In this document: piece after piece, positions 18,459 through 36,575 of the stretch | Layout of the letters: each line of letters opens with the position of its first letter | How positions within the stretch are numbered: the first letter of the stretch is position 1 | From: a virus | IMG/VR virus record: IMGVR_UViG_3300031603_000002 | Span: 32,596-96,595 of that record | Length of the DNA stretch: 64,000 bases | Strand: one strand, 5' to 3' | Program-made: the position numbers and the translations under genes | Notes under the pieces: generated by a model | Told to the model about the DNA's origin: nothing | What the model saw: only the letters and a program-made list of their open reading frames with translations | The model's database searches: none

Positions 18459-18502
18459 ACAAAGCGGGGACGGCATTTATTGTCATCCCCGCTTTGTTCT
18501 TT
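18459..18502 (+). terminator. rho-independent terminator after SSB
   Basis: ACAAAGCGGGGA...TCCCCGCTTTGT inverted repeat followed by a T-rich stretch. Confidence 0.75.
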
Positions 18503-18529
18503 GGAGGTAAAAATACTAATATTACATAC

Positions 18530-19795
18530 ATGGAGAAAATTATGGTAGTAAAAAAGAAAGTAACGCCAAGAAAGAAACCAGCGCCACGAAAAAAGAAAGT
18601 CGCTAAGAAAGACGAGTTGACCGAGGACTTTACAAAAGACCTGATTGCCTCGCTAAACAAAGAATTTGGTTCAAAGGTTGCGTATAATCTAGGCACCGAA
18701 ATTTCTCCTACACATGTAAAGCGGTGGATTCCAACAGGATCACGCCAGATTGATTACATGGTCGCAAACCGCCGCCATGGCGGGCTTCCAGAAGGTCGTA
18801 TTATCGAAATTTTCGGTCCGCCTTCGATCGGCAAGTCACACATCGCAACCCAGATTGCAAGGTCAACTCAAGAAATGGGCGGGCTGGCTGTATATATTGA
18901 CACCGAGAACGCAACCTCAGTTGAGAATCTGGCAATGCTCGGTATCGATATTTCAAAACGATTCGTTTATGTTGACCAACACTGTACAGAAGACGTCTTG
19001 AAAACCGCAGAGTCCACGATCTTGAAAGCGAAAGCTATGAAAAAAGACGTGCCGATTACAATAATCTGGGATTCTGTCGCAGCATGTTCCCCAAGGGAAG
19101 AACTTGACGGTGATTACGACAAAAACTCAATTGGACTTCAAGCAAGAGCTATCTCAAAGGGCATGCGCAAAATCACAGGTGTCATTGGAAGCCAAAATGT
19201 CCTCCTTGTTTGCCTGAATCAAACGAGAACGAAAATCGGTGTGATGTTTGGTGACCCAACGACGACTCCAGGTGGTGCCGCGATCCCATTCCATTCGTCA
19301 GTAAGGATCAGGCTCGGTGCCGGTCAACAAATCAAAGCCAAAAATGGAGATGTGATCGGCATCCACGTGTGGGCAAAGACAATCAAAAACAAGGTTGCCA
19401 TGCCCTTCCGGAAAGTCAAATTCGAAATCCACTTTGGTAAGGGCATTTTTGAACATGAGCAGATTTTTGATGTGTTGCGGAAACACGGCCCTGAAGATAT
19501 TGATGGGAAAACGATATCAGTCAGCGGAGCCGGCGCAAGCAAAGATTTCATTGTCACCGACACAGAAACCGGCGAAGTCCTTATCGAAAAGAAGTTCTAC
19601 AAATCGAAATTCAACAAACTCCTAGATAGCGATGAATATGGTCCGTACCTCGCAGATTTGTTCGACAAGGTTTACGTGAAAACAATAGCGAACCCATATG
19701 ACATGGAAATCGACGAGAACTCATATGAAGAGGTAAGTGCCTTAGCGGATGAGCTAGGAGCCATCGACGCCGATGTCCTAGAGGAAATTGCATAA
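18530..19795 (+). CDS. recA: RecA/UvsX recombinase
   Basis: GRIIEIFGPPSIGKS, IDTEN, WDSVAA, NQTR.KIGVMFGDP.TTPGG. Confidence 0.95.
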   Translation: MEKIMVVKKKVTPRKKPAPRKKKVAKKDELTEDFTKDLIASLNKEFGSKVAYNLGTEISPTHVKRWIPTGSRQIDYMVANRRHGGLPEGRIIEIFGPPSIGKSHIATQIARSTQEMGGLAVYIDTENATSVENLAMLGIDISKRFVYVDQHCTEDVLKTAESTILKAKAMKKDVPITIIWDSVAACSPREELDGDYDKNSIGLQARAISKGMRKITGVIGSQNVLLVCLNQTRTKIGVMFGDPTTTPGGAAIPFHSSVRIRLGAGQQIKAKNGDVIGIHVWAKTIKNKVAMPFRKVKFEIHFGKGIFEHEQIFDVLRKHGPEDIDGKTISVSGAGASKDFIVTDTETGEVLIEKKFYKSKFNKLLDSDEYGPYLADLFDKVYVKTIANPYDMEIDENSYEEVSALADELGAIDADVLEEIA

Positions 19796-19796
19796 G

Positions 19797-20762
19797 ATGA
19801 ATCAGCCTGCCCACCAAGATCGTCCAGTTTTGATTATCGACTTCATGAACATGTTCATCAGGCATTTCAAAGCCAACCCGTCAATGGCATCCACCGGAGA
19901 ACCAGTCGGCGGAGTTATGGGCTTTCTTGGTGGTTTGGGACGGTTGTGCGAAACATACAATCCAAAAAAGGTAATCGTTGTTTTCGAGTCAGGCGGAAGC
20001 CAAAGAAAACGAGCAATTTCAGCGTCGTATAAGAACGGTCGAAAGGCACCGAAAATGAATCGGTACTACGGCGATGACATTCCAACGACACCTGAGAATT
20101 TTGCCATGCAAGTTCTGTTTATTACCCGTGCATTGAAATGTTTGCCGGTGACACAGGTGTACGTCTCAGGCTGCGAAGCAGACGACGTTATAGGTTACCT
20201 AGGCCGGTACCATTTCAAGACGTCCAGGGTCATTCTGGTGTCTTCAGACAAGGATTTCTATCAGCTCATCGATGAACGAGTGCAACAATGGTCGCCCGGA
20301 CAGAAAAAGTTGATTACAGAACAGGCTGTTATAGACAAGTTTGGTGTTTCTCCACAGAATTTTTGTTCAGCGAGGGTGTTCATCGGGGATCCGAGTGACA
20401 ACGTTTCTGGTGTGAAAGGTGTAGGCTTCAAGAATATGGCAAAGTGGTTCCCGCAACTGGGTGGATCCGAGTTCATTAGTCATAACGATGTTGTTGATAG
20501 CGCCATCGAATTGGCGAAAACAAAGGCAGCCAAAACGATTCATCGGATTGCTGAATCTAGAGATTTGGCGCTGAAAAACTGGAGACTGATTTACCTGGAT
20601 ACATCTCAACTATCAGGAGACCAGATTCAAAAGGTAAATCATCAGATTGAAAATGAGGGTGAGGGAAACAAGATGCAGTTGATGCGTCAGTTAATCCAAT
20701 CGGGCATGCAAAAATTTGATATTGATCGACACTTCGCCGCGATTATGTCAATTCGACGCTAG
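19797..20762 (+). CDS. 5'-3' exonuclease / flap endonuclease
   Basis: IIDFMN, YKNGR, EADDVIG, SSDKDF.QL, GDPSDNVSGVKGVG. Confidence 0.9.
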   Translation: MNQPAHQDRPVLIIDFMNMFIRHFKANPSMASTGEPVGGVMGFLGGLGRLCETYNPKKVIVVFESGGSQRKRAISASYKNGRKAPKMNRYYGDDIPTTPENFAMQVLFITRALKCLPVTQVYVSGCEADDVIGYLGRYHFKTSRVILVSSDKDFYQLIDERVQQWSPGQKKLITEQAVIDKFGVSPQNFCSARVFIGDPSDNVSGVKGVGFKNMAKWFPQLGGSEFISHNDVVDSAIELAKTKAAKTIHRIAESRDLALKNWRLIYLDTSQLSGDQIQKVNHQIENEGEGNKMQLMRQLIQSGMQKFDIDRHFAAIMSIRR

Positions 20763-21091
20763 CCAGAATATTCTGTGCCCCATTCTTCAACAGCAGCCTG
20801 GACCCGCTGAACAGGGACGCCTTCATCTTCGGCGACTTGTTCAATTGCATACTTCTCAGCGTTATAACCAGGTGCACCGTAAGCAATGTATTCACCAACA
20901 TATTGAGCGAGGTTAAAGTCAGAAGCCTTAGGTGGTCGACTCTGTTGTGGTCTCCGGCGTGGCGTTGAAGCCCCGGGAACCATACGTTGTTCACCATTGT
21001 GATCTGTGTACCAATCAAGCGTTGAATCTCGAATATCAGCCAGTCCGGCTTCACGAATGAGTTTTGTTAGTCGTTTTTTTGTAATTTTCAT
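20759..21091 (-). CDS. leader-bearing putative head-internal protein
   Basis: N-term MKITKKRLTKLIREA; coupled to the upstream minus-strand ORF. Confidence 0.75.
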   Translation of the reverse strand: MKITKKRLTKLIREAGLADIRDSTLDWYTDHNGEQRMVPGASTPRRRPQQSRPPKASDFNLAQYVGEYIAYGAPGYNAEKYAIEQVAEDEGVPVQRVQAAVEEWGTEYSG

Positions 21092-21390
21092 TCTGTCCCG
21101 CTTATTAGGTCACGCGTGTTGACTGTAAAGAGTCTGTCTCTACGAAGGTCATACACTTCTGTTCGCGATCCATCATCGCTTGTGCGTCCCACTTCAATTT
21201 CAGTTCCTGCGAGCAGCCACGCTGTTCGTCCTGATGAGCGATTTTGCAGTCCGCCCTGGTTGAGCCATAAAACATCACCGGTCAGGACTTCGCGACTACC
21301 AGGCCCTAGACCGTAATCTTCGAGCTCTGATTGGTGCAAATCAGCATATTCTCGAATGAGCCTTGTCAGGCCATTTTTTGTCATTTTCAT
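21088..21390 (-). CDS. leader-bearing putative head-internal protein
   Basis: N-term MKMTKNGLTRLIREY; AAGGA SD; ATATTTA at 21414-21420 on the minus strand. Confidence 0.75.
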   Translation of the reverse strand: MKMTKNGLTRLIREYADLHQSELEDYGLGPGSREVLTGDVLWLNQGGLQNRSSGRTAWLLAGTEIEVGRTSDDGSRTEVYDLRRDRLFTVNTRDLISGTE

Positions 21391-21521
21391 AGGTTATCCT
21401 TTTCTTCTTTCTATAAATATCTGCACAACACACCAGCGAAAATAAACATGTAAATACGGGTTTGCTTTCCTATTATTTATGCATACGAACGTGTCGGAGT
21501 TAGGCACCAAAGAGGCAATAA

Positions 21522-22967
21522 GTGGCGGAATCGAAAAACAACTTCATGCAGAACATCATCGACAACGCAAACAATGTACCATATTTTGCCCAACATGGAA
21601 AATCATTTCAAGAGAAAATCTTTCAGGGCCTAATTTTTGACATTCCATGGGCATCTCAAATGGTTGAGGTCATGCGCCCGAACTTTTTTGATGTTGAGTA
21701 TCTCCAGTTTCTAACTGAAAAATACTTCATGTATCACCAGAAATACAAGTGCTTTCCGACATTGGGTTTACTCGTCAACGTCATCCGCGATGAGTTGTCC
21801 GACGGCGAAGATGACATTCTACGTGACCAAATTATCGAGTTCTTGCTTCGTGTCAAGGCCAACCGCAACCCAGGAGACATCGCTTACGTCAAAGATAAAT
21901 CGCTAGACTTCTGTAAGCGACAAGCATTCAAGGCTGCGTTGGAAAAGTCTGTCACGTTGATTGAGGGCGATGGGTTCGAAGAAGTCATGGTGTTGATGAA
22001 GGACGCTATTTCGTTGGGAATGCCTCACACAGTCGGCCATGATTTTTTTGAAGATATCGAAGCGAGGTTTCTGAAAATAAACAGAAACGCTATCCCAACA
22101 GGATTTCCAATCCTAGATGCGAAGGACATACTCAGCGGTGGTCTCGGAAGAGGCGAAATTGGAATTATCGTTGCCAACACAGGCGTGGGAAAATCACATT
22201 GGCTTGTTGCATTGGGCGCAAATGCAATGCGTGCGAAAAAGAATGTACTGCATTATACATTCGAACTGTCAGAAACTAAAGTCGGAATCAGATATGACAG
22301 CAATTTATGCGGAATACCTTCAAATGATGTACAGGACAATATTGAATTAGTCAAGGGTGTATACGACAAAAAGGGTCTCGGACGACTAATCATCAAAGAG
22401 TACCCGACAGGAAGCGCGACAGTTCAAACGTTGCGCAACCACATCGAAAAACTCGCGATGAAAGGCTTCAAACCTGACATCGTCCTCGTAGACTATGCTG
22501 ACATCATGCGGTCAGACAGGAAATCGAGCGAGCTTCGACATGAGCTAAAATTCATTTATGAAGAACTAAGAAACCTTGCCATGGAATTAGACATTCCAGT
22601 TTGGACAGCATCACAAGCGAACAAAGACAGCGCGCAATCGGACGTCGTAGGCCTCGAAAACATGTCAGAGGCATATGGCAAAGCCATGGTTGCAGACGTT
22701 GTCATAAGCATATCAAGAAAAGCAGCCGAAAAAGATCTCGGCGTTGGGCGTCTTTTCATTGCAAAAAACAGAGCAGGAAGAGATGGCATACTTTTTCCAA
22801 TCTCAATTGACACAGCAATGTCAATGTTTGAAATACTTGATGACAAGTCTTTAACATTGTCAGAAACAATAAGACAATCAGACAGCAGCGCAAAAGCAAC
22901 ACTAATGGATGCGTGGAAAAAAGTAAAAAGTGACGGCGAGCCGTGGAAGACAGAAGGAGTGAATTGA
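21522..22967 (+). CDS. DnaB-like replicative helicase (gp41-like)
   Basis: ANTGVGKS Walker A, YTFELSE, IKEYPTG, LVDYAD, WTASQ, KNRAG. Confidence 0.9.
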   Translation: MAESKNNFMQNIIDNANNVPYFAQHGKSFQEKIFQGLIFDIPWASQMVEVMRPNFFDVEYLQFLTEKYFMYHQKYKCFPTLGLLVNVIRDELSDGEDDILRDQIIEFLLRVKANRNPGDIAYVKDKSLDFCKRQAFKAALEKSVTLIEGDGFEEVMVLMKDAISLGMPHTVGHDFFEDIEARFLKINRNAIPTGFPILDAKDILSGGLGRGEIGIIVANTGVGKSHWLVALGANAMRAKKNVLHYTFELSETKVGIRYDSNLCGIPSNDVQDNIELVKGVYDKKGLGRLIIKEYPTGSATVQTLRNHIEKLAMKGFKPDIVLVDYADIMRSDRKSSELRHELKFIYEELRNLAMELDIPVWTASQANKDSAQSDVVGLENMSEAYGKAMVADVVISISRKAAEKDLGVGRLFIAKNRAGRDGILFPISIDTAMSMFEILDDKSLTLSETIRQSDSSAKATLMDAWKKVKSDGEPWKTEGVN

Positions 22968-22969
22968 TA

Positions 22970-25435
22970 ATGTATACGAAAGAGGAGGTGTTAGCAGCAT
23001 CACGAAAATATTTCAGCGGTGATGAGCTTGCTGCAACGGTCTTTACGACCAAATATGCGCTGACAGACAAATATGGTGCCATCTGGGAAAACACGCCAGA
23101 TGGTATGCATCAACGATTAGCAAAAGAATTCGCAAGAATCGAAAGAAAATATCCCAACCCAATGAATGAATCTGAAATATTCAGGTTGCTTTCATCATGG
23201 GAGGTTGTTCCACAAGGTTCACCGATGTCAGGCATTGGAAACGACCACCAGCTCCAGTCACTTTCAAACTGTTTCGTCATTGGTGCTCCAGAGGATTCAT
23301 ACGCAGGCATTCTCCACACAGATCAGCAGCAAGTCCAGATAATGAAGCGTCGTGGGGGCGTTGGGTTTGACATTTCAAACCTTCGACCGAAGGGAATGGT
23401 TACATCCAATGCAGCCAGGACAACGGACGGTCTTGCAATCTTCATGGAACGCTTCTCCAACTCGACAAGAGAAGTTGCTCAAGGAGGGCGGCGTGGTGCA
23501 CTGATGATTTCAATCGATATTCGCCACCCTGAGATCGAAACATTCATCAACATTAAGCGAAACCTCGATAAAGTCACCGGCGCCAATATTTCAATTCGCC
23601 TAACAGATGAGTTCATGCTGGCAGCAGCCAGCAACAAGAATTACACACAACAATGGCCAGTAGACTCAGCTAATCCTGAATGTGCAAAATCTGTCAGCGC
23701 CCGAAAAATCTGGGACATGATTATTGATTCGGCATGGACAATGGCTGAGCCGGGTGTTCTGTTCTGGGACAACGTAATTAAGAGCTCAATTCCAGATTGC
23801 TACGCCGACTTGGGTTTCAAAACAGAATCATGCAACCCGTGTGCGGAGCTGGTTCTTTGTCGAGATGATAGTTGCAGATTGTTGCTCATCAACCTCGCCA
23901 AGTTCATCAAGGGCGCATTCACCGGTAATGCTCGCTTCGAGTGGGACCGTTTTTCAAAGGTGGTCCAGCAATCGCAACGTCTCATGGACGACCTGATTGA
24001 TTTGGAGATTGAAAGCGTTGACAAAATCATCGCCAAAATCAAGGCTGATCCAGAGGATGAAAGTGTCAAGGCTATTGAGTTAGATTTGTGGGAGCGAATC
24101 AAGAAGAAGGCACTCCTGGGACGAAGAACAGGATTGGGTGTCACCGCAGTTGGTGACGCTGTTGCAATGCTGGGCGTGAAATACGGATCCAACAAATCGA
24201 TCAAGGTCATCGGGGAAATCTACAAGGCACTTGGTGTTAATGCTCACATCTCATCATGCAAGCTGGCCAAAGAGCGTGGCGCATTTCCGATTTTCGATGC
24301 AGCACGTGAAACAGATCTTCCGTACTTGGTACGACTATTGGCTTCAAACAAAGAGCTTGCCAGCTTGTACAAGAAATATGGTCGCAGAAATATTGCGTTG
24401 ACAACAACAGCGCCGGCGGGTTCTGTTTCGACAATGACACAGACAACTTCAGGGATCGAGCCGGTCTTCATGCTCAAGTACCGCCGCCGAAGGAAAATCA
24501 CCCATGGGGAGAATCTCAAGGCTGATTTTGTTGATGCGATGGGTGATGAGTGGGTCGAGTACGATGTTTACCATCACATGCTTAAAAAGTGGATGGATGT
24601 GACAGGTGACGACAACATCGAGAACTCACCGTATTGGGGCGCAACGGCTCCTGAGTTGGATTGGGTACAACGTGTGAAAATCCAAGCAGAGGCCCAGAAG
24701 TGGGTTGACCATGGAATTTCGTCGACGTGCAATCTACCAGCAGACGTTTCAAAGGAAACAGTTCGCAAGATTTACGAGGCTGCCTGGAAATCAGGATGTA
24801 AGGGTTTCACTGTTTATCGAGATGGTTGCCGAACGGGTGTGTTGGTTTCTGCAGATGATAAGAACGATAGTGCACACAAGGACGACTTTTTCCCAGCGGT
24901 CAGCGCCCCGAAACGCCCTGACTCGCTTGAATGTGAGATTCGTCACGCATCGATCAAAGGAGAAAAGTGGGTGATTCTTGTTGGGATGTACAAAGGTCGT
25001 CCCTACGAGTTGATGGCAGGACTTAGTTCCTCAATTGAGATCCCTGGAAAGTATAAGACCGGTCAAATCATCAAGCGCCCACGAAAGACAAAGAACAGCA
25101 TTTACGATTTAAGCTTCGGTGAGGAAGGTTCACAGATTGTTATCAAGGACATTGTGAAAATGTTTGATAATCCGTTGCACGCGGCATTTACTAGAACGAT
25201 CTCATTGGCCCTCAGGCATGGGGCGGATGTTAAATATATTGTTGAACAATTGAATAAATCAGGCGAAATTGATTTCACGAGTTTCAACAAGGTCGTATCA
25301 AGAATCCTAAAGAAATATATCCAGGACGGCGAGGTCGTGAGCGGTTCAAAGGAGTGCGATGCCTGCGGTGACAATGCTCTGGTGTATCAGGAAGGCTGCG
25401 TGACATGTTCATCTTGCGGAAACTCAAAATGTTGA
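22970..25435 (+). CDS. nrdJ: class II (adenosylcobalamin) ribonucleotide reductase
   Basis: SLSNCF, RRGGVG, NPCAE, RRTGLG, TTAPAG, YRDG; TSCPD-like region and C-terminal Zn ribbon; no beta subunit nearby. Confidence 0.9.
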   Translation: MYTKEEVLAASRKYFSGDELAATVFTTKYALTDKYGAIWENTPDGMHQRLAKEFARIERKYPNPMNESEIFRLLSSWEVVPQGSPMSGIGNDHQLQSLSNCFVIGAPEDSYAGILHTDQQQVQIMKRRGGVGFDISNLRPKGMVTSNAARTTDGLAIFMERFSNSTREVAQGGRRGALMISIDIRHPEIETFINIKRNLDKVTGANISIRLTDEFMLAAASNKNYTQQWPVDSANPECAKSVSARKIWDMIIDSAWTMAEPGVLFWDNVIKSSIPDCYADLGFKTESCNPCAELVLCRDDSCRLLLINLAKFIKGAFTGNARFEWDRFSKVVQQSQRLMDDLIDLEIESVDKIIAKIKADPEDESVKAIELDLWERIKKKALLGRRTGLGVTAVGDAVAMLGVKYGSNKSIKVIGEIYKALGVNAHISSCKLAKERGAFPIFDAARETDLPYLVRLLASNKELASLYKKYGRRNIALTTTAPAGSVSTMTQTTSGIEPVFMLKYRRRRKITHGENLKADFVDAMGDEWVEYDVYHHMLKKWMDVTGDDNIENSPYWGATAPELDWVQRVKIQAEAQKWVDHGISSTCNLPADVSKETVRKIYEAAWKSGCKGFTVYRDGCRTGVLVSADDKNDSAHKDDFFPAVSAPKRPDSLECEIRHASIKGEKWVILVGMYKGRPYELMAGLSSSIEIPGKYKTGQIIKRPRKTKNSIYDLSFGEEGSQIVIKDIVKMFDNPLHAAFTRTISLALRHGADVKYIVEQLNKSGEIDFTSFNKVVSRILKKYIQDGEVVSGSKECDACGDNALVYQEGCVTCSSCGNSKC

Positions 25436-25490
25436 GTATATTTTTGTATACATATTGCTAAAGAAACAATGAACGAAGAGAAATCATTGC

Positions 25491-26135
25491 ATGAGAAATA
25501 GAAACAACGACCCAACGTTCAAAAAAATCCTGAACACGATGCTCAATCATACAGAAGAAGTCGTCCGGAATACAGCGAAATACATTAGAAAACGGGGCAC
25601 GCCCGTGTATGTCGTCGGTGAAGATGTCACCCCTGAGATCCCATACATCATTAATGGGATCAAATCCGCATACCAACTAACATACAAAGATTTGATTCCG
25701 TTTTCTGGTGCGACGCTGTGCAATGAAATATTTCTATCTAAAGCGCTGTTTCACCAAAACGACAGCTTCAAAGTGGAAGATTTGAAACATGTGATCTGCG
25801 ACGACGGCTATAAAATAGATCCTGTTATCGAGCTACAAACGATTGCAGTAATCGTCCACGAGGTAAACCACATAATAAACAGACAATATGTCACAGGCTC
25901 TCACTTCACACCAACATTTGAAGATTACGTTGTGTCTTTCGATGCAAAATCAAAATATGAACAGGCTCAACTCAGGGCAAAAGACGAATATCACGCATAC
26001 TCTTCAGCACAGGGTGTACTTTACGGGATGTCAGACAACAACATCAAAAAAACAATCCGTCGGGAAGCCCTTTGGGGGTGTGCAATTGATGAATCAAGTT
26101 TTGCCTTTGACTGGAACACAACAAATGAACGATAA
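25491..26135 (+). CDS. hypothetical protein with HExxH motif
   Basis: IVHEVNH...DEYHAY. Confidence 0.55.
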   Translation: MRNRNNDPTFKKILNTMLNHTEEVVRNTAKYIRKRGTPVYVVGEDVTPEIPYIINGIKSAYQLTYKDLIPFSGATLCNEIFLSKALFHQNDSFKVEDLKHVICDDGYKIDPVIELQTIAVIVHEVNHIINRQYVTGSHFTPTFEDYVVSFDAKSKYEQAQLRAKDEYHAYSSAQGVLYGMSDNNIKKTIRREALWGCAIDESSFAFDWNTTNER

Positions 26136-26316
26136 AGAAGTACGAAAAGAGCTCGAGCACATCATGGGCAAAATATCCATAAAAGACCAGCTTCTTGCGT
26201 GGCACAGAAAAACCCATGATGACTATGAAGGGTTCGACAATTACAACGATTACATCAAGTACGGTGGAATGTTTGTGCCAGTCGAACCACCGAAAAAACA
26301 GGAGGAAACGAAATGA
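26125..26316 (+). CDS. hypothetical protein
   Basis: overlap-coupled short ORF. Confidence 0.5.
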   Translation: MNDKEVRKELEHIMGKISIKDQLLAWHRKTHDDYEGFDNYNDYIKYGGMFVPVEPPKKQEETK

Positions 26317-26864
26317 ACACAGAAGAAGAAAATGAAGCCCTTAGGGTTGAAGAAGCGCGACTAGTCAAAGAGCTCAAAGAGTTTTCAGACTTGGCCGCAG
26401 CAGAAGAGGCGAAAGATAGGGCGGCGTTTGAATCAGGCGATGAGAAGTATAAACTGATCGCAGCATGCGAATATGGCGAGCATTGCCTGGAGATTGTTCC
26501 GCCTCCAAGAACGTCACGCCTTGTATACCTGACAGAAAAAGAGTCTGATGAAGCGATAAAATCAGGTAAGATCTCAGCGTGTACTACGCCAGACGGTAAG
26601 TACATCGATGCAACTGTAGACGATGACCTGGAAAAGTTTCAACAATTGGTTGATGAACTCTTTGGGCATGTATATTCAATGGGCCGTAACCTTGGAATGG
26701 GTAACCGTGATCGTAAACTTGAGGCTCACGAACTTATGGCCGCTCTTGACGGCACACGTAACCTAGGTCGCGATCTTGCGGATGACATCATGGAAAAACG
26801 CGGAGATTTCAGCGAGTTGTGCAGTCGGATTTTAGGTTGGGGTTGGTTTGAAGCCGGAAAGTAA
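26313..26864 (+). CDS. hypothetical protein
   Basis: GGAGG SD, 183 aa. Confidence 0.7.
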   Translation: MNTEEENEALRVEEARLVKELKEFSDLAAAEEAKDRAAFESGDEKYKLIAACEYGEHCLEIVPPPRTSRLVYLTEKESDEAIKSGKISACTTPDGKYIDATVDDDLEKFQQLVDELFGHVYSMGRNLGMGNRDRKLEAHELMAALDGTRNLGRDLADDIMEKRGDFSELCSRILGWGWFEAGK

Positions 26865-26913
26865 ATGAACACCTGACGCTCATCCCATATAATGTAAGCA
26901 AGAAAGGGGTGCT

Positions 26914-27126
26914 ATGGTTGCCAGGTATACAACGAAATTTGTGTATATTGTGATGTATACGACATTCACGAAGGATGGATTTCCTGAAACGAAAATCCTC
27001 CGCGTTTGCAAGAATGAAGACGCAGCAATCCGCTTTAGTAAGAAGTGTCAATGGGGTGTACCTGAACACGCCGCGAATTACTCCGTAGACACGCACATGG
27101 TATATGATGAAACGTATGATGAATAA
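26914..27126 (+). CDS. hypothetical protein
   Basis: TGAACA-16-TATAAT at 26866-26893 and GGGG SD upstream. Confidence 0.55.
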   Translation: MVARYTTKFVYIVMYTTFTKDGFPETKILRVCKNEDAAIRFSKKCQWGVPEHAANYSVDTHMVYDETYDE

Positions 27127-27336
27127 GCGCCGAGTCTACGAAATAGACATCAATGAAATCCCCAGCCGCTACGACATATTATCATACATGGAAGGTGTGT
27201 CCCCATGCAATGCGCTTGGTGAAAGAAGCCGATGAAGCAGAGCAAAATAAAGAATACGAAGATGCATGCGACCGACTAGATGAACTTTCAAGAAACAGAG
27301 GCTGGAATGATCCAACCGCAAACACACCGGATTACA

Positions 27337-28194
27337 ATGGCGAATAAGACAATTTTCAAATATGCTGGTAATAAAGCCAAAGTTATGGCCAAGATTTCCC
27401 CGTATTTCAAGTGGGATGGTGTGACGGCATACTTCGAACCCTTCTGTGGGACATTAGGCTCAGCACTCAACGTCGAAATCCCGGAAGAGGTCACGAATGT
27501 GATGCTCTCAGACGAGAACTGGGAAGTTATCAATGTCCATAAAATGTTCATCAGGCAACCCGGGCTCCTCGAAGAAAAAGTGAACGCCCTTCCGTTTGGC
27601 GAAGATGCATACTACGAAATCCGGAACAAGGATCGTGAAGAGGTCCACTTCGAGGAAAGAACGAAAGACATCGACCAGGCAGCCAGAACACTTTATCTGA
27701 ACAAGAATTGTTTCAATGGCCTGATGCGATACAACCCGAAGAAAGGGTATTTCAATGTTCCATGGAACCATGCCAAAAAGAAAGCCGTTGTCAACCTGAC
27801 CGGTAAAGACATGCAATATGCCCGCGATTTCTTGGCATCAGAACGTGTTTGTGTTAAGTGGTTGGGTTTTGAGCAGCATTTCGATGGGTTCGGGAAGGGC
27901 GATTTGGTCTATTGTGACCCGCCGTATATCAGCATCAAAAACCCAAAGCAAGAGTTCGTTGGCTTTGTTGGCAACTTTGATAGGGATAAACAATCTGACC
28001 TTGCAAAGGCGGGAGTTGATGCCCACAAACGTGGCGCTAAGGTTTATATCTCAAATTCTGACTGTCCGGCATCACGCGGCCTTTATGCTTTTTACGGGTA
28101 TAGGATTGTTGAGGTAAAAAATGTCCAAAGAAGCTTGTCGTCCAAGGGCACATCGCGTAAGAAAGTCGGTGAAATCCTCGCAATATTGGACTAA
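27337..28194 (+). CDS. D12-class (Dam-like) DNA adenine methyltransferase
   Basis: KYAGNK, EPFCG, YLNKNCFNGL.RYN, YCDPPY, ISNS. Confidence 0.9.
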   Translation: MANKTIFKYAGNKAKVMAKISPYFKWDGVTAYFEPFCGTLGSALNVEIPEEVTNVMLSDENWEVINVHKMFIRQPGLLEEKVNALPFGEDAYYEIRNKDREEVHFEERTKDIDQAARTLYLNKNCFNGLMRYNPKKGYFNVPWNHAKKKAVVNLTGKDMQYARDFLASERVCVKWLGFEQHFDGFGKGDLVYCDPPYISIKNPKQEFVGFVGNFDRDKQSDLAKAGVDAHKRGAKVYISNSDCPASRGLYAFYGYRIVEVKNVQRSLSSKGTSRKKVGEILAILD

Positions 28195-28197
28195 ACA

Positions 28198-28665
28198 ATG
28201 ACTAACGAAGAAAGATTTGCCAAAGCAAGGGCTCGAATTGGCCCGTCAACTCATCCGGCCCCTCCTAAAGTTTTGCCTCAAATCGGTGAGCCCACCGAGA
28301 ACATCAAGTCAGACGACAAAGTGTTGATACGTCCATTTCCATGGAAACTGAAAGCAGATTGGAGTGGAGGCAGGTATGGTTTCAGGCATCAACCATGCCA
28401 TTATATTTGGCTTAAGGGAACTGTTGTCGACCACGAGTCATTTCCAATCTCCAACGGAGTGTTTGTTCAATTCGACAAGAACCAAAACGAATTTGCCGTT
28501 GCTGAAGACTACGAACGCTGGAATAACTGCCCACTGTTTTTCACATGGGAGCAGGTTTCAAAAGGGATCAAGCATTTGTATACACAACATGGGTTCAAGC
28601 AAGGTGATGTTGTAAGACGTAAAAACGCGGATGAAACTGAAATCAAGGAGAAAAGCGAATGCTAG
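28198..28665 (+). CDS. hypothetical protein
   Basis: tightly packed ORF. Confidence 0.6.
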   Translation: MTNEERFAKARARIGPSTHPAPPKVLPQIGEPTENIKSDDKVLIRPFPWKLKADWSGGRYGFRHQPCHYIWLKGTVVDHESFPISNGVFVQFDKNQNEFAVAEDYERWNNCPLFFTWEQVSKGIKHLYTQHGFKQGDVVRRKNADETEIKEKSEC

Positions 28666-28871
28666 GACCACCTGTTTGCGATAAATGCGAACTGATTATG
28701 CAACCAACGACTGATCAGACATCCCCTGATATTCATCATTATGTCTGCCCAAAATGCACGACCCAAAACTGTCACACGTTCAGCAATCGACCAATACTAA
28801 CACGTCAAAACTATCGTAAGATTGTGGCTGACACGTTCCACTTTCTGGAGAAGCATGCTGAAGGAAAATGA
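28659..28871 (+). CDS. small Zn-ribbon protein
   Basis: CDKC...CPKC; AGGAG SD. Confidence 0.6.
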   Translation: MLGPPVCDKCELIMQPTTDQTSPDIHHYVCPKCTTQNCHTFSNRPILTRQNYRKIVADTFHFLEKHAEGK

Positions 28872-29187
28872 GTGCCTCGAGGAAGATGAGTTCAAAACCG
28901 GAGATTTGATTTGGACGATAGGAATCAATTCACCGTATATGCAGTATACATCGTTTTCGGCCTTACTCATTGATGCTGAAAACAAAATATTACTTTTCGA
29001 GTGCAAGAAAAAGAAATGGAAAAACCGATTCTACAAAACAGAACAGGAAGCAAAAGACGCGGTCGATGCTAAGCGTCGGAGTATGTATATGAGTGCCAAA
29101 GACATATGTTCTGTTCAGCCTATGACATTACCCAAGAGTGAAATATTTCACCTCCCATATGAATACAAATACAACGAGGATGACTAA
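28855..29187 (+). CDS. SH3-like protein with C-terminal capsid-protein-like (Gol-region) peptide
   Basis: FKTGDLIWTIG...FYKTEQEA scaffold; tail AVDAKRRSMYMSAKDICSVQPMTLPKSEIF resembles gp23; GGAG SD. Confidence 0.65.
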   Translation: MLKENECLEEDEFKTGDLIWTIGINSPYMQYTSFSALLIDAENKILLFECKKKKWKNRFYKTEQEAKDAVDAKRRSMYMSAKDICSVQPMTLPKSEIFHLPYEYKYNEDD

Positions 29188-29479
29188 AGTGCAAAAGTTC
29201 TATACGGTATGGGAAAACACGAATCCTGATGAACTCGAAGACAGCATTATGTCTATCATTTCATATAAAACGCAGACTGAAGTTGCCCAACTGCGAAAAC
29301 AATCGCCGAGAGCGGTCAGCAACAGGCATTGTGAAGCCGATTGGTATTTCAGGCCAGTCGCACCAGATGATGAAACAATCGCCGAAATGTTCGGGGATAA
29401 TTGGAAATATGAAACAGCTGCCGGCTTTAAGACCGACGAGGCTTTCACAGAGTGGAATAGGGGAAAAGAATGTTTGTAA
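29180..29479 (+). CDS. hypothetical protein
   Basis: overlap-coupled ORF. Confidence 0.55.
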   Translation: MTKVQKFYTVWENTNPDELEDSIMSIISYKTQTEVAQLRKQSPRAVSNRHCEADWYFRPVAPDDETIAEMFGDNWKYETAAGFKTDEAFTEWNRGKECL

Positions 29480-30093
29480 AGAAGGTAGTGAGTAACTTGT
29501 TGAAGTCTGAAGCTGCGCTCAAGAACGAGCCAGTGATTGTGTACGTCAACAAGTTTAATGAGGAAGCAGCTAAGAAGTTCTCCGAGGACATGGCAAAAGC
29601 CCAGGGAACCGGTCAACCTGTTATTCCTATCGTTATTGATAGTTATGGTGGCGCTGTATATTCGCTGATGTCCATGGTGTCAGCAATCAAAGCATCAGAA
29701 GTTCCGGTCGCTACAATTGTACTTGGAAAAGCAATGTCGTGTGGTACTGTTTTAGCTTCATGTGGTGCTGAAGGCATGCGATTTTGTTCGCCTGACGCAA
29801 CATATTTGATTCATGATGTTTCGTCATGGGCTGTCGGCAAGGTTGAAGAAATGAAAGTCAGCACCAAAGAATCCGACCGACTAGACAAGAAGTTGTACAC
29901 CCTGATGGCACGTAACTGTGGGCAGAAGGACAATTACTTCAAAAAGCTCAGTCGTAAGAAGAAGGGCGCCGACTGGTTCTTCACACCAAAAGAAGCAAAG
30001 AAGCACAATATGGCAAACCATATCTGCATTCCAAAAATGACAGTCAGCGTCGATGTCAACTTCAAGTTTCACAACTGCGATGAGGGTGAATAA
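29470..30093 (+). CDS. clpP: ClpP-like protease
   Basis: IDSYGG.V, AMSCG (catalytic Ser), YLIHD, DWFFTPKEA. Confidence 0.9.
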   Translation: MFVKKVVSNLLKSEAALKNEPVIVYVNKFNEEAAKKFSEDMAKAQGTGQPVIPIVIDSYGGAVYSLMSMVSAIKASEVPVATIVLGKAMSCGTVLASCGAEGMRFCSPDATYLIHDVSSWAVGKVEEMKVSTKESDRLDKKLYTLMARNCGQKDNYFKKLSRKKKGADWFFTPKEAKKHNMANHICIPKMTVSVDVNFKFHNCDEGE

Positions 30094-30096
30094 GTC

Positions 30097-30513
30097 ATGG
30101 ATATCCCCGGGTTTGAAATTAAGGTAAACGTTCCGCCAAAGCCTCGAAAGCTAAGAACGAAATGGGCCAGCGAACCAATCACGGACACACCCGAGGGGCT
30201 ATCAGAAACTCTGAAAAAAGATACTATAAGAGATATAATATCTCAACAGATAGCTGACGAAATTGATGCTGAGATTGCAGCTGATTTCGCTGAAAAACTT
30301 GGTACACTCCACGTGCGATTTGAGGTCGTCCCGAGAAAGGGTATGATGGTGAATTACTGCCATCCTATGAACGAAGAGAAGATGCCAGGATTGATTCTGC
30401 GCGAATGGGATCCAAACGTCAAGAACTCTGGACAAATCCTGCTTGGTGGTGGAACCAAATTCGCTTTCGCAAGTGATGACAACGCTGAGCAATGGTTCGA
30501 GGAAGTTAAATGA
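30097..30513 (+). CDS. protein with N-terminal capsid-protein-like segment and C-terminal SH3-like domain
   Basis: GFEIKV..PRKLRTKW...IISQQIADEIDAEI resembles the gp23 middle segment. Confidence 0.65.
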   Translation: MDIPGFEIKVNVPPKPRKLRTKWASEPITDTPEGLSETLKKDTIRDIISQQIADEIDAEIAADFAEKLGTLHVRFEVVPRKGMMVNYCHPMNEEKMPGLILREWDPNVKNSGQILLGGGTKFAFASDDNAEQWFEEVK

Positions 30514-30788
30514 ACCCAATGATGCCCAAGAAACCATGGTACAGCGGTCAAGGAATGAGAGTAAACCATGCAAGCGTAAAACTTACGCAGGTCCCGAAAG
30601 CAGGCGATTTGATAAAGTATGTGTTTACGCCTGCAGGTGGGATCGTGAGGTTTGGACTATGTATACAACCACAGATACATGACGGTGTAGGAAGTTTGCT
30701 AATAAATGGCGAAGTCTGGACATTTTCAGATCACCCGACATGTCAGATTGCCTGGTTTGATGTCGTTAACAACAAGGAGATAATATGA
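30510..30788 (+). CDS. SH3-like hypothetical protein
   Basis: VPKAGDLIKY; resembles the C-terminal half of 30097. Confidence 0.6.
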   Translation: MNPMMPKKPWYSGQGMRVNHASVKLTQVPKAGDLIKYVFTPAGGIVRFGLCIQPQIHDGVGSLLINGEVWTFSDHPTCQIAWFDVVNNKEII

Positions 30789-31018
30789 TTAAGAATGAAC
30801 AATGCTATAGGTGCGCTTCACTTCTGGATGAAAAACAAACATGCTCAGGATCTGGATTCACATTGAACTGTGCCTCATGTCATAAATGCCACGGTAAGGG
30901 CGGTAAGCCTATCTGCATCACATGTGGAAAATGCGCGTCGTGCGGAAACTATCGGATTAAGTTTAGGTCGCTCAGCCAAGGCGCTCGCCAACTGAAGATA
31001 AAACGATGCGAATGTTGA
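30785..31018 (+). CDS. Cys-rich Zn-binding protein
   Basis: multiple CxxC; AGGAG SD. Confidence 0.55.
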   Translation: MIKNEQCYRCASLLDEKQTCSGSGFTLNCASCHKCHGKGGKPICITCGKCASCGNYRIKFRSLSQGARQLKIKRCEC

Positions 31019-31028
31019 TGGCGATATA

Positions 31029-31445
31029 ATGAAATACGGTATGACGGGCTCACGAAAAGGCATGTCACATGAACAATATCAAAAGTTTTTTGCGCTGTTA
31101 GAACGGTACCCGAAGCTTAACCATTTGATTCATGGCGACTGTCATGGTGCTGATACAGAGGCACACATGCTTGCTGTTGAAAAAGGCCATGAAGTTACAA
31201 TCCGACCGTGCGATTTCCCAGGAGCAAGAGCTCACTCGCATGCATCTACAATTCATGAAGAAAAACGCCCGTTAGTAAGGAACCACGACATCGTCGACGA
31301 AAGTGAAATGATGTTTGCGTTCCCAGCTCAGTGGAAAGAACAGTGGCGTGGCTCCGGGACCTGGGCAACAATTCGGTATGCAAAAAAAGCTGGGAAAATG
31401 CTCTGGGTCATTTATCCTGACGGATCTGTTGTGTCTCACGTGTAA
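31029..31445 (+). CDS. SLOG (YspA/DprA-like) nucleotide-binding protein
   Basis: GMTGSR, HGDC.GAD, PLVRN..IVD, SGTWATIRYA. Confidence 0.85.
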   Translation: MKYGMTGSRKGMSHEQYQKFFALLERYPKLNHLIHGDCHGADTEAHMLAVEKGHEVTIRPCDFPGARAHSHASTIHEEKRPLVRNHDIVDESEMMFAFPAQWKEQWRGSGTWATIRYAKKAGKMLWVIYPDGSVVSHV

Positions 31446-31468
31446 AACACCGAATATTGTGGTATAAT
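31441..31468 (+). promoter_or_regulatory. sigma70-like early/middle promoter TGTAAA-16-TATAAT
   Basis: same arrangement at 21449, 35939, 44222, 62214. Confidence 0.75.
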
Positions 31469-31506
31469 AAACATGTTCCCGGGGACGATACAAAGAGGCC
31501 AACTAA

Positions 31507-32742
31507 ATGCGTGTTACAGAAATTCTAAATACAGTGAATGAAACAAAAGGCACAAATGCCAAATTGGACATTCTACGAGCCAACGCCGACAACGAAACAC
31601 TGAAGCGTGTTTTGAAGCTCAGCCTTGACCAGACAATTCAATTCTGGGTCAAGAAGGTCCCAAAGATTAGCCTTCGCATTGATGTGAAGCACCCGCGGAC
31701 CGATGCCGAGATTTGGGAGCTGCTTTTCAACGTGTTGGAAATGTGCCAGGCACGAGAGCTTACTGGCAACGCCGCCCGCGAGGCAATCCTTGATGTGCTG
31801 GTTCAGGTCACTCCAGAAGATGAGTACTGGATGCGTCGACTGATTCAGAAGAAGTCAGCCGTTGGCATCGCCCGGACAACCACGAACAAGGTTTTCCCCG
31901 GACTCATCACGACATTCAAGGTCCAGCTCGCCGATAAGTGGAATGAGAAGACTGCTAAGAAAATGCCCGACCGGGTTTTCGCCGAGCCAAAGCTTGACGG
32001 AATCCGTCTTCTTTCAATCGTGCGGAATGGGACATGCGAATCGTATGCCCGTTCAGGCAAGCGAATCTCTAACTTCGATGATACCATCGGCAAAGAATTG
32101 GCCAGTCTACCAGAAGGTGTTTACGACGGCGAGGTTATGGATGAAGACTTCACTGCTTTAATGCGTCAATACCGTCGCAAGACAGGCGCAAACGTTACGA
32201 AATCGTACCTTACAGTTTTCGACTATGTCACATTGGAAGAATGGGACAATCGAAAAGGAACTGTAACGATGCGTGCTCGTCGTGATCTCCTTGAAGACAT
32301 TTTCATGGCTAATCGTCTCGAAGGTGTTTTCCTGATTGAGCAGGTCGAAGTTGACAAGTCCATGGACGCAATTGCGGTCTGGCAGGCCAAGTGGGAATCG
32401 CTAGGTTTTGAAGGCGCCATGGTTAAGAATCCGGATGCCGTTTACAAGTTCGGTCGCTCCCGTGACATGCTGAAGGTGAAGTCATTCATCGACATCGACC
32501 TTGAGGTTATCGGTTTCAAGGAAGGAACCGGCAAGAACATCGGAAAACTCGGTTCACTCTTCGTCGACCACAACGGCGTCGAGGTAAACGTTGGTTCTGG
32601 TTTCGATGACGAGCAGCGTGTCGAGATTTGGAACAACCAAGATGATTTCCTGGGAACCACAGCTGAGTGCCGGTACCAGGAAGAGACCGATGACGGTTCG
32701 CTACGATTCCCGACCTTCGTTTGCTGGAGGCTTGATAAGTAA
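31507..32742 (+). CDS. ATP-dependent DNA ligase
   Basis: EPKLDGIR, DGEV, EGAMVK, LKVK, VGSGF, SLRFP. Confidence 0.95.
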   Translation: MRVTEILNTVNETKGTNAKLDILRANADNETLKRVLKLSLDQTIQFWVKKVPKISLRIDVKHPRTDAEIWELLFNVLEMCQARELTGNAAREAILDVLVQVTPEDEYWMRRLIQKKSAVGIARTTTNKVFPGLITTFKVQLADKWNEKTAKKMPDRVFAEPKLDGIRLLSIVRNGTCESYARSGKRISNFDDTIGKELASLPEGVYDGEVMDEDFTALMRQYRRKTGANVTKSYLTVFDYVTLEEWDNRKGTVTMRARRDLLEDIFMANRLEGVFLIEQVEVDKSMDAIAVWQAKWESLGFEGAMVKNPDAVYKFGRSRDMLKVKSFIDIDLEVIGFKEGTGKNIGKLGSLFVDHNGVEVNVGSGFDDEQRVEIWNNQDDFLGTTAECRYQEETDDGSLRFPTFVCWRLDK

Positions 32743-32927
32743 TGGAATGTTTTGGGTGGCTTTTCATCATCGGAGGCATCACGCTATGTCTCTTCCTTTT
32801 GCGTGGTCCAAAGCTGTATCACAAGAGACAAGGCAAGCCCAGCGGTAAACGTCCTTCGTTGCCATTCTCACGATTGACAACTGAATATGAGGAACACCCT
32901 GGCATTCAGATCTACAAGGAGTGGTGA
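32742..32927 (+). CDS. small membrane protein
   Basis: N-terminal hydrophobic helix; TAATG coupling. Confidence 0.5.
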   Translation: MECFGWLFIIGGITLCLFLLRGPKLYHKRQGKPSGKRPSLPFSRLTTEYEEHPGIQIYKEW

Positions 32928-32930
32928 TAA

Positions 32931-33473
32931 ATGAGTTTACCCACACGAAAGTTTATTGAAAGCGAGATGACGAACCTGGCTGACTATGTCCAGAAACATC
33001 CAGACGCCAAGAACATCGCCACGGTTTTCTGTGCTCCCAAAGGTTATGCAAGTTCGTACCCGTGGAAAACAGGCGACACACTTCTTTACGTCGGCGAGAT
33101 GCATAACATGGCCGGTCATGGTGTGTTCGTTCCAAATAAAGGAAAAATCGTCTGGGGTTACCATCTGGACAGCTTTTACGTTGAGAAACATGATGAGTTT
33201 GAATATACGTCCGCCAGATTTTTGGTCGGGTTCAGCTACTTCAAAACGTCGTCATGGAGTATGCTAGCCCGTGAACCTTCAATCGTATCGTTTACAGCCC
33301 ATGCTTCAAAGGGGTTGGCATTGAATCTTGATTTCTGGATGGCAGAATCCCTAAAGGAAGGATGGCCGCCGATGACGAAGAACGATTTTTATGACAAGGT
33401 GATGCAGGAGGCCCTAGATTATTATCACGTCTGGGATGGGCCACGAGATGAGATGTTATGCAAAAATGGGTGA
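32931..33473 (+). CDS. hypothetical protein
   Basis: AGGAG SD; WKTGDTLLY SH3-like start. Confidence 0.6.
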   Translation: MSLPTRKFIESEMTNLADYVQKHPDAKNIATVFCAPKGYASSYPWKTGDTLLYVGEMHNMAGHGVFVPNKGKIVWGYHLDSFYVEKHDEFEYTSARFLVGFSYFKTSSWSMLAREPSIVSFTAHASKGLALNLDFWMAESLKEGWPPMTKNDFYDKVMQEALDYYHVWDGPRDEMLCKNG

Positions 33474-33742
33474 GCGTCCTTGGCAAAATGCCAAAGAAAG
33501 GTGATCTGGTACGCCTGACAAGGCTCGAACTTTCATCGACGACTTTCGGCGAGGTGACAACATATAGTTGCACACGCAATAACTGGCGTCCAGCAATGTG
33601 TTCAGGGGTGACACGCTCACACGATGCGAAATATATAACATTACAATTTCACGACAGAATGGAGTGGTTTTTCTTTGAAGATGATAAAGACAAAGTGCCC
33701 TTCGCAAAATACGAATTAGGAGTAATAGAAAATGGAAAATGA
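33458..33742 (+). CDS. SH3-like hypothetical protein
   Basis: MPKKGDLVRL. Confidence 0.55.
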   Translation: MQKWVSVLGKMPKKGDLVRLTRLELSSTTFGEVTTYSCTRNNWRPAMCSGVTRSHDAKYITLQFHDRMEWFFFEDDKDKVPFAKYELGVIENGK

Positions 33743-34244
33743 AATCAAATATGTCAATGGTGACGCAACAAAACCAATCGGTGAAGGTATAAAGTATATC
33801 ACGCATATCTGTAATGATATCGGGGGATGGGGACGCGGGTTTGTCCTGTCTCTATCGAAGGAACATCCGCATGCTGAAACAGCATACCGGTCGTGGTATC
33901 AGCAGAATGATGATGAGTTGTTTGAGCTTGGACGCGTCCAGCTCGTCGAGTCGAAGGATAAAATCACCGTCGTGAACATGATTGGCCAGCATGGCATCTT
34001 TACCAAAGATGGCGTACCCCCAATTCGCTATCCTGCTGTTCGATCTTGCTTCCACCAGGTTGCGAAGTTTGCAATAGGTGTTGGCGCCTCGGTTCACATG
34101 CCTCGAATTGGTTGTGGGTTGGCAGGCGGTAAATGGTCTGAGATTGAGAAAATCGTGAACGAAGAGTTGATCGCGAAGGGCATCGAAGTCTATGTGTATG
34201 ATTTCGACACAAAAGATGCCCGCACAATCCCTTGGAAGAAGTAA
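33732..34244 (+). CDS. macrodomain ADP-ribose hydrolase (DarG/TARG1-like)
   Basis: GDAT, HICNDIGGWGRGF, NMIGQ, MPRIGCGLAGGKW. Confidence 0.9.
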   Translation: MENEIKYVNGDATKPIGEGIKYITHICNDIGGWGRGFVLSLSKEHPHAETAYRSWYQQNDDELFELGRVQLVESKDKITVVNMIGQHGIFTKDGVPPIRYPAVRSCFHQVAKFAIGVGASVHMPRIGCGLAGGKWSEIEKIVNEELIAKGIEVYVYDFDTKDARTIPWKK

Positions 34245-34762
34245 TGATTACCAACACCGATGAATATTGGGACGCGATTCTTTGGGAAGCGTCGCAGGAA
34301 GACACCAAAACAATCATGATTTCGACGTATGGAATGTACGCCGGCGTTTCTGATACTGGCGAGAATACTGCAGCAAAGTACAGCTTTGATCGACGCCCAC
34401 AGCGAATCTTGGATTTGTCAAACAAGGGTAAGAAGGTGATCTTTCTGTTGTCGGAGAGTGATCCGATCATTTGTACTCCTGGCTGTGAACATTGCATTGC
34501 AAAATCGAAGAAACGCGACGCAAGGAATAATGCCCATTTCGAAGCATGGCCGAATGTCGCTTGGTTTATGACACAAAATCATCACCTCAAGGCATTTATC
34601 GTCCAGAAAAAGGATGGCCGAATTGTAGGATACACCGGAGGACGTAATTTCTCATCTTCTTCCTGGCGTGACGTTTCAGTTGCTCTTTCTGAGGACGACG
34701 CAGCAAACTTGATGAAACACCTGCTTTTCATTATAAAAACGTACGCCGTGAAATTGAACTGA
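34244..34762 (+). CDS. single-domain phospholipase D-family (HxK) protein, probable nuclease
   Basis: ISTYG, HHLKAFIV...YTGGRNFS. Confidence 0.7.
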   Translation: MITNTDEYWDAILWEASQEDTKTIMISTYGMYAGVSDTGENTAAKYSFDRRPQRILDLSNKGKKVIFLLSESDPIICTPGCEHCIAKSKKRDARNNAHFEAWPNVAWFMTQNHHLKAFIVQKKDGRIVGYTGGRNFSSSSWRDVSVALSEDDAANLMKHLLFIIKTYAVKLN

Positions 34763-35990: not shown

Positions 35991-36575
35991 ATGGAAAAGA
36001 CACCCGACTATGGCCACGCGCCGTCAAATTATTCTACCGAAGACACAACCTGGAAAAGGTACTGTAAGAAGTTGCTTCAAAGCACAACACAAAGACTGTC
36101 AAATCAGTTCCTAGACAACGTTGTCACGGAGTGTATTGTCACAAACGACGACCGGAGCATTAACTATTTCGATGAGGAAAAGTTTTTGAATCTCGCTGGC
36201 GAGTTTTTCGACAAGACATTTATTGAGGTTATAATCAACACCAATAGCGATCGCTTGAGCACAGCCAAAATTACATATGTGAAAGAACCCAAAGAACAGA
36301 AGGCTTCCTGGGAATTGGCGCTTTCGGCGGTCCAGAATAACGACAGAATAGTCAAGGGCGCCGCAGGTGCTATCGACATCGAAAACGACGAACGTTTCGA
36401 TGTCGACGGTATGGATCAGCTAATGGCAAGTCTTGAAGTCTTGTCAGCCCGTGACAAAGCAAAACGAAAAGAAAAATTCGGAACAGAGATTGACACAAGC
36501 AGACTCCACAAGTGTGGCGAAATCATGTGGCACGAAGGACCTAAAAAAGATGATCTTACGATCGAGGACAAGTAA
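35991..36575 (+). CDS. hypothetical protein
   Basis: TGTAAA-16-TATAGT upstream; GAGG SD. Confidence 0.65.
   Translation: MEKTPDYGHAPSNYSTEDTTWKRYCKKLLQSTTQRLSNQFLDNVVTECIVTNDDRSINYFDEEKFLNLAGEFFDKTFIEVIINTNSDRLSTAKITYVKEPKEQKASWELALSAVQNNDRIVKGAAGAIDIENDERFDVDGMDQLMASLEVLSARDKAKRKEKFGTEIDTSRLHKCGEIMWHEGPKKDDLTIEDK

Follow-up and report, generated by a model that had tools for sequence, protein, structure and literature searches.

A small gene of a marine jumbo phage joins a conserved segment of a gp23-type major capsid protein to a predicted all-beta domain

Phage major capsid protein (MCP) is a frequent trigger of bacterial immunity, sensed either as a whole fold or via short motifs, and examples of capsid-triggered systems include Avs7/8/10, Dsr1, CapRel, Lit and Thoeris (bioRxiv 10.64898/2026.01.04.697583; PMC13728456). 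For CapRel, as for Lit with EF-Tu and the Gol region, a short conserved stretch of the capsid protein is what is recognised (bioRxiv 10.64898/2026.01.04.697583), and the locus described here is conceptually close to these cases. Phage-encoded competitors for sensors of structural proteins are known as well, DSAD1 versus DSR2 being one example (PMC11087589). A further point of comparison is provided by the NF045540 fusions, in which a ClpP-like prohead protease is joined to an MCP. To our knowledge, DSAD1 has not been reported as derived from the protein it competes with; our literature search found no phage protein built from MCP pieces, and no phage counter-measure made from pieces of the phage's own capsid protein has been described so far. 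As for the Gol region, we take it to be residues 93-122 of T4 gp23. The capsid-derived piece that is the subject of this work maps to about T4 residues 247-313 and not to Gol, whose equivalent stretch is found in another small gene of the same phage (28855-29187).

The window, that is, the whole stretch of 64,000 nucleotides analysed here, corresponds to bases 32596-96595 of a 96.6-kb virus record with a CheckV completeness of 28%. The closest long relative is IMG/VR record UViG_3300022902_000004 (318 kb, 93% complete; G001 hereafter), whose whole sequence was used for comparison. The source belongs to the T4 superfamily and is an uncultured marine jumbo phage with a genome of about 320 kb. 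Its own MCP, a gp23-type protein of 628 aa, is encoded outside the window (contig 12303-14186) and belongs to a lineage that is very abundant in marine metagenomes (>8000 clusters); the best matches among cultured or deposited phages show less than 50% identity and come from Flavobacterium, Microcystis and Rhodothermus phages together with huge uncultured phages. In G001, a single full-length gp23-type gene is detectable at 93% completeness, and neither a gp24-like vertex paralogue nor a Cpn10-type co-chaperonin was found there. A gp21-type prohead protease is encoded in G001 at 159105-159521, near the MCP gene.

The gene under study, hereafter the chimera, its two parts and its immediate neighbours are the following (window coordinates):

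29470-30093, + strand: ClpP-like protease gene directly 5' of the chimera (Pfam CLP_protease, E 1.5e-25)
30097-30513, + strand: chimera gene, encoding a 138-aa accessory protein (ORF list, orthologues, dN/dS, upstream sequence)
30100-30297, + strand: MCP-derived segment, residues 2-67 (Pfam, PHROG, BLASTP, HMM, hhalign, T4 mapping)
30304-30510, + strand: all-beta C-terminal half, residues 70-138, with six predicted strands (AF2 secondary structure, low confidence)
30510-30788, + strand: next gene, 92 aa, translationally coupled, all-beta (ORF list, synteny, AF2)

The chimera opens with an ATG at 30097, preceded at about 8-12 nt by a GAGG-type ribosome-binding site, and its product begins with MDIPGFE; the stop codon (30511-30513) overlaps the start of ORF 30510 in an ATGA. 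Searches of 5.8 billion and 1.84 billion proteins yielded two orthologue clusters besides its own, at 81% and 68% identity, the latter form being present at two loci in IMG/VR; no further relatives were found in IMG/VR or among cultured phages. Across the family, defined here as the three distinct orthologue sequences, 88 of the 138 positions are invariant. Comparison with the G001 orthologue gives a dN/dS of 0.086 for the whole gene and 0.17 for codons 1-69, with dS saturated. Gene order in G001 matches that of the window, running from a Dam methylase through several small ORFs, a capsid-piece gene, a small ORF and ClpP to the chimera, and continuing with the ORF 30510 homologue, a Cys-rich ORF, the ORF 31029 homologue and the ligase; in a Tara contig the chimera again adjoins the ORF 30510 homologue. 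Together, these data show that the chimera is a real accessory gene under purifying selection. It has no similarity to entries of PADLOC. Two distant matches were dismissed as artefacts: P0004 (E 1.4e-6 in the search of 1.84 billion proteins) contains some twenty 68-residue tandem repeats that sum a weak 18-residue match, and P0005 is a giant tandem polyketide-synthase array.

A preliminary description of this DNA had likened residues 1-64 to the strand and long helix of gp23, and profile comparisons bear this out. In Pfam, residues 9-60 align with positions 140-190 of the Gp23 model (PF07068) with an E of 0.0022 and 17.9 bits, the gathering score of 24.4 not being reached, and phrog_138 (major head protein) matches the chimera with an E of 2e-4. 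BLASTP against the phage's own MCP aligns chimera residues 3-104 with MCP residues 369-478 at 29% identity (pairwise E 1e-7), and the MCP used as query against all 1188 contig ORFs recovers the chimera with an E of 1e-4. Conversely, when a profile of residues 1-69 built from the three distinct orthologues was run against 5279 ORFs, both MCPs came out as the best non-self matches (E 1.7e-4). With an HMM of the MCP lineage (122 MCPs), the same segment is found in the chimera (E 3.8e-4) and in the orthologue from G001 (E 0.014); no unrelated ORF has a score that falls between those of the two. Finally, hhalign aligns the chimera with the MCP over 64 columns with a probability of 96.7% (E 3.3e-10). 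As a control, all 59 small-protein families common to both genomes were compared with the MCP alignment by hhalign: four of them reached 94-98%, namely the chimera and three other capsid-piece genes, and the remaining 55 stayed at or below 2.7%.

Aligned to 126 MCPs, the N-terminal profile falls on the corresponding segment in every case. Its scores range from 12 to 24 bits (median 19.4) in the phage's own MCP lineage and from 1 to 18 bits in six distant T4-superfamily MCPs, which indicates that the own lineage fits the piece best on average. Altogether, these comparisons confirm the homology of chimera residues ~2-67 to residues 369-435 of the own MCP, and show that the first ~65 residues descend from a gp23-type MCP of the same broad lineage. 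The complete HK97 fold is not present in the chimera, only MCP 369-435 being aligned. A PDB profile search with the chimera family returned no capsid match, and its sole match was an unrelated flagellar protein (E 0.003). Two candidate MCP pieces in the C-terminal half were regarded as chance or inconclusive: residues 65-87 against MCP 540-567 (pairwise E 0.002), and residues 77-100 against the MCP C-terminus, 596-620 (hhalign 6%, HMM domain i-E 220). In this last region, the invariant VPRKGMMVNYCHPM at 30328-30396 (residues 78-100) weakly resembles the MCP C-terminal motif PRKGvMTRYgkkM (hhalign 6%, E 0.006, not significant).

The nature of the copied segment can be read from an alignment of the MCP with T4 gp23 structures, in which the T4 residue equals the MCP residue minus 122. 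On this basis, the piece contains I-domain linker 2 (the E-loop equivalent) as a shortened hairpin, followed by KPRKLRTKW, a basic strand of the P-domain, then a diverged linker that stands where the MCP has a short acidic helix, and finally a copy of the spine helix (residues ~43-68). In T4, I-domain linker 2 is functionally an E-loop that strengthens inter-capsomer association, and the stretch 247-313 also holds P-domain strand residues and the short acidic P-domain helix; positions 268-287 harbour mutations that affect head length, H282 and M284 contact the portal whiskers, and the spine helix carries the gp31-bypass sites G292, V306 and V307 (PMC9546572). The copied elements sit at the inter-capsomer, folding-critical part of the shell protein. 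Within the MCP lineage the segment has a mean consensus frequency of 0.93, with 51 of its 67 columns at least 95% conserved, and by this measure it ranks among the best-conserved stretches of the MCP. The chimera retains 22 of these 51 near-invariant columns, clustered in two blocks.

Compared with gp23, the chimera is homologous and colinear over ~65 residues and keeps both the R-K-L-R/K-x-x-W strand and the I-x-S-x-Q-I-A-x-E-x-D-x-E-I helix pattern. However, it carries a tenth of an MCP, without the N-arm, the I-domain, the A-domain and the rest of the P-domain; its hairpin tip is three residues shorter and proline-rich; and it has lost the short acidic helix along with the His by which the portal whisker is anchored in T4. 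At the centre of the MCP segment, the acidic-helix part QDL..H..D.E.EL is absent, and an invariant motif specific to this ORF, TPE.LSETLKK, stands in its place. In addition, the chimera scores below the Pfam threshold and is encoded among replication genes.

With regard to age, a comparison of the chimera with the MCP gene at the DNA level, proposed in the preliminary description as a way to date the capture, revealed no similarity beyond 10-nt chance words and thus speaks for an old event. Between the two phages the MCP segment is 100% identical and the chimera's copy 63% identical, so that the copy must be old and subject to its own, looser constraints; it evolves far faster than the parent segment. 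Judged by the lack of DNA similarity, the 29% protein identity and the saturated dS between orthologues, the capture is ancient. Phylogenetic dating was given up, since the 65-column alignment of fast-evolving copies proved unstable.

The C-terminal half (residues 70-138) has no match in Pfam, NCBIfam or PHROG at E up to 1, and nothing significant arises from its comparison with the MCP (hhalign probability 6%). In a low-confidence AF2 model of the chimera from a shallow alignment (pLDDT 36), a helix is predicted for residues 41-68 and six strands after it. Structural neighbours of the ESM Atlas model of residues 76-138 are small viral proteins and Tudor/DUF1918-type barrels, with TM values of 0.5-0.56 that are normalised by the small target. 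The idea of an SH3-like domain put forward earlier finds no counterpart in family matches; the modelled neighbours provide a lead only, according to which the C-terminal half is possibly a small SH3/Tudor-like barrel.

In each of the three phages with the chimera, ORF 30510 adjoins it; this ORF is modelled as all-beta (AF2, pLDDT 45) and shows no capsid similarity, the latter as the preliminary description had stated. The same description saw in the rest of the chimera a relative of this ORF and proposed a duplication followed by fragment capture, a scenario for which we obtained no significant statistic. BLASTP of the C-terminal half against ORF 30510 gives an E of 0.98, not significant, and hhalign between the two family profiles a probability of 0.25% (E 0.24, 15 columns); when the families are ranked by hhalign, ORF 30510 is second of 58 non-self families, yet with a probability of 1.2%. 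A Smith-Waterman comparison of the chimera with ORF 30510, run as one pre-planned comparison, scores 37 against 23.6 +/- 4.3 for shuffles (P 0.0125), which ranks 14 of 5089 ORFs, and the alignment is colinear across both domains, although weak. Under this weak alignment the last four predicted strands correspond in the two low-confidence models (pLDDT 36 and 45). None of the four tests lends significant support to paralogy of the C-terminal half with ORF 30510; adjacency raises the prior for a tandem duplication, but the data fall short of establishing it.

The chimera is one of a set of small genes that carry pieces of the MCP, at least five in this phage and seven in G001, which holds all five plus two extra paralogues:

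Contig 17321-18178: sister ORF with MCP 11-95 and a weak match to 383-436
Contig 20199-20708: sister ORF with MCP 442-522
Window 28855-29187, + strand: sister gene, small scaffold plus C-terminal MCP 95-123 (Pfam Gp23 E 1.2e-5, hhalign 94.4%)
Window 30097-30513, + strand: the chimera, with MCP 369-435
Window 42948-43271, + strand: sister gene, small scaffold plus C-terminal MCP 565-591 at 67% identity (hhalign 97.1%)
G001 209339-209833, + strand: extra gene, second A-domain-like copy, MCP 426-530 at 36% identity
G001 303570-304118, - strand: extra gene, second N-terminal copy, MCP 13-109

Like the chimera, the sister genes are small and conserved, and in each a different MCP piece is joined to, or lies beside, a small non-capsid domain. 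The chimera differs from the genes at 28855 and 42948 in that its piece is N-terminal and theirs are C-terminal, and it has the longest helix-containing piece of the set; no relation could be detected between its partner domain and the GDL(I/V)WT(I/L)G scaffolds of these two genes. The opposite terminus and the lack of a detectable relation between the partner domains make the earlier proposal of an independent capture event plausible. In this regard, the five pieces do not overlap on the MCP and two of the junctions abut; random placement yields no overlap with a P of 0.08 over the whole protein and of 0.004 over the conserved core (a post hoc test). Such non-overlapping tiling suggests that these genes are more than unrelated accidents. 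In a crude catalogue of 463 genes of G001, three proteins of at least 350 aa are partially matched in genes of at most 260 aa, the MCP accounting for six of the nine pairs; by this count, the MCP is the sole large protein of the phage with many partial copies in small genes.

Some further features of the set deserve mention. The ORFs at contig 17321-18178 and 20199-20708 lie outside the window, 3-6 kb 3' of the MCP gene. The former combines the MCP N-terminus with a weak copy of the RKLR..W strand/spine-helix region, and the latter is essentially an A-domain, so that the two represent complementary halves of the fold. The two extra G001 genes fall in regions outside the coverage of the 96.6-kb record. 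An I-domain-like piece suspected in ORF 35991-36575 (HMM E 0.18) was discarded, as hhalign gave no support. The ORFs 28855-29187, 42948-43271, 33458-33742 and 44807-45088 share a small beta-domain with a GDL(I/V)-type beginning, with weak phmmer links among them (E 0.03-0.6); they may constitute a diffuse small-barrel family, two of whose members carry capsid pieces.

The chimera resides in a tightly packed, co-directional block that also encodes DnaB, ribonucleotide reductase, Dam methylase, ClpP and DNA ligase. The heptamer ATACTTA precedes the MCP gene, and no ATAYTTA occurs on the + strand between 17280 and 34762. The gene neighbours and the absence of this one motif suggest that the chimera is expressed at a non-late stage. 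More generally, ATAYTTA, which stands ~25 nt before the MCP start, occurs 17 times in the window against 9.7 expected, mostly before + strand genes outside 17280-34762, and may be a late-promoter element.

The ClpP neighbour does not serve as the head-maturation protease, since a gp21-type enzyme is encoded near the MCP gene in G001. The chimera is missing from relatives that carry a ClpP of 58-60% identity (L039-L043). As observed at 30091-30099, ClpP and the chimera share one reading frame, with a TAA and one codon between them (..D E G E * V M D..); in G001 the frames differ, and the chimera frame is open for 18 codons further 5', overlapping the end of ClpP. ClpP was discarded as a functional partner or fusion, the linkage being limited to a narrow clade and the frames not conserved, and the proximity of the two genes is probably incidental. 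The resemblance to the NF045540 arrangement consists of a ClpP-fold gene followed by in-frame capsid-like sequence. In contrast with those fusions, two separate genes with a stop codon between them are found here, the shared frame is not conserved in G001, and the capsid part is a 65-residue gp23-type piece and not a whole HK97-type MCP.

How, then, might the chimera work? Our tentative preference, held with somewhat less than even confidence, is that it mimics a conserved MCP surface and acts as a decoy or competitor for a host factor that binds the MCP. Carried on a small beta-domain, the RKLR.KW strand and the helix face QIA.E.D.EI would be presented to a partner that ordinarily binds this region of freshly synthesised MCP, and the protein would thereby occupy that partner; the likeliest would be a host factor for capsid-protein recognition, an immune sensor or a chaperone for instance. 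Encoded in the replication-gene block, it could be produced earlier than, or separately from, the late capsid genes and so act pre-emptively, and the C-terminal beta-domain might give solubility or a second contact, perhaps with the product of the coupled ORF 30510. This reading is in line with the special position of the MCP among the large proteins and the tiling of its core, with the high conservation of the segment and the retention of near-invariant residues in two blocks, with the non-late context devoid of ATAYTTA, and with capsid proteins being common triggers of bacterial immunity. On the other hand, a sensor that fires on binding capsid should be triggered by the mimic, unless it is bound unproductively; the acidic-helix part is not retained, which makes the mimicry partial; and the family occurs in a narrow clade only (three clusters in 5.8 billion proteins), while MCP-sensing is widespread. 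The same idea can be extended to the whole set, as small proteins each bearing a different conserved MCP piece, which together tile the HK97 core and would weaken, swamp or mislead the host factors by which nascent capsid protein is recognised; in such a panel the chimera would display the E-loop-return strand and the spine helix. We regard this extension as unlikely.

Unlikely too, in our estimation, is a role in assembly, in which the MCP-like hairpin and helix would bind the MCP or the growing lattice through native-like contacts at the capsomer periphery and so cap or chaperone a very large capsid as it assembles, time its assembly, or label special sites on it. In T4, the copied elements do strengthen the contacts between capsomers and control head length as well as gp31-dependent folding (PMC9546572); other capsid-piece genes adjoin the MCP gene; and the 93%-complete G001 has neither a second full-length, gp24-like paralogue nor a Cpn10-type co-chaperonin. 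However, the block that holds the chimera is one of replication and nucleotide metabolism and lacks the motif that stands ahead of the MCP gene, and the divergence of its copy (63% identity) beside an MCP segment that is 100% identical gives no obvious sign of co-evolution with a fixed MCP surface. That divergence, the 29% identity to the MCP, the replacement of the segment's centre by the invariant TPE.LSETLKK, and a G001 orthologue that barely scores against MCP profiles (E 0.014, with no match in two other searches) would be expected if the piece were an exapted spare part, that is, a generic module of hairpin and amphipathic helix used, for instance, for oligomerisation or barrel packing, whose capsid origin is merely historical. 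We consider this likewise unlikely, as it leaves unexplained why the MCP alone donated pieces to 5-7 small genes, why these tile the core, and why near-invariant MCP residues are retained in two blocks. The in-frame position of ClpP and the chimera, a TAA and one codon apart, together with a weak match of the ClpP part to NF045540 (E 5.5e-12, far below the cut-off), brings to mind a remnant of a ClpP-like protease/MCP fusion of the scaf_prot_MCP1 kind, or two products still joined by read-through of the TAA; but the frames differ in G001, the piece is of gp23 type and closest to the own MCP lineage, ClpP homologues at 58-60% identity have no neighbouring capsid remnant, and the true gp21-type head protease is elsewhere in the genome, all of which makes this origin very improbable. 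As to chance similarity, or to the ORF not being a gene at all, the Pfam score under the gathering threshold and the PDB search without a capsid match for the family profile might be invoked; the hhalign probability of 96.7% with a clean control, the consistent alignment position across 126 MCPs, the dN/dS of 0.09 and the synteny kept in three phages effectively refute it.

If the preferred decoy reading, or the assembly role, were true, the panel of capsid pieces would represent a new form of viral self-mimicry, either as decoys or as assembly regulators, and would point to MCP surfaces that are important to hosts or to assembly. The chimera, small, soluble-looking and equipped with the folding-critical spine helix and the inter-capsomer linker, offers a direct experimental handle, the more so as its parent segment is invariant over thousands of MCPs from marine phages. 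Even as a mere exapted spare part, it would clearly illustrate how a new gene can arise when a fragment of a structural gene is reused.

Small genes of the chimera's block gain and lose domains between close relatives. For instance, the product of window 28198-28665 (155 aa) has a homologue of 301 aa in a relative (L006, 7688-8593), which bears an extra C-terminal half. In the relatives that have ClpP at 58-60% identity, the flanking genes resemble, by eye, thymidylate synthase and dihydrofolate reductase genes, and one of these relatives (L041) has a thyA-like gene (873-2462) of 529 aa, about twice the usual length, that may hold an insertion.
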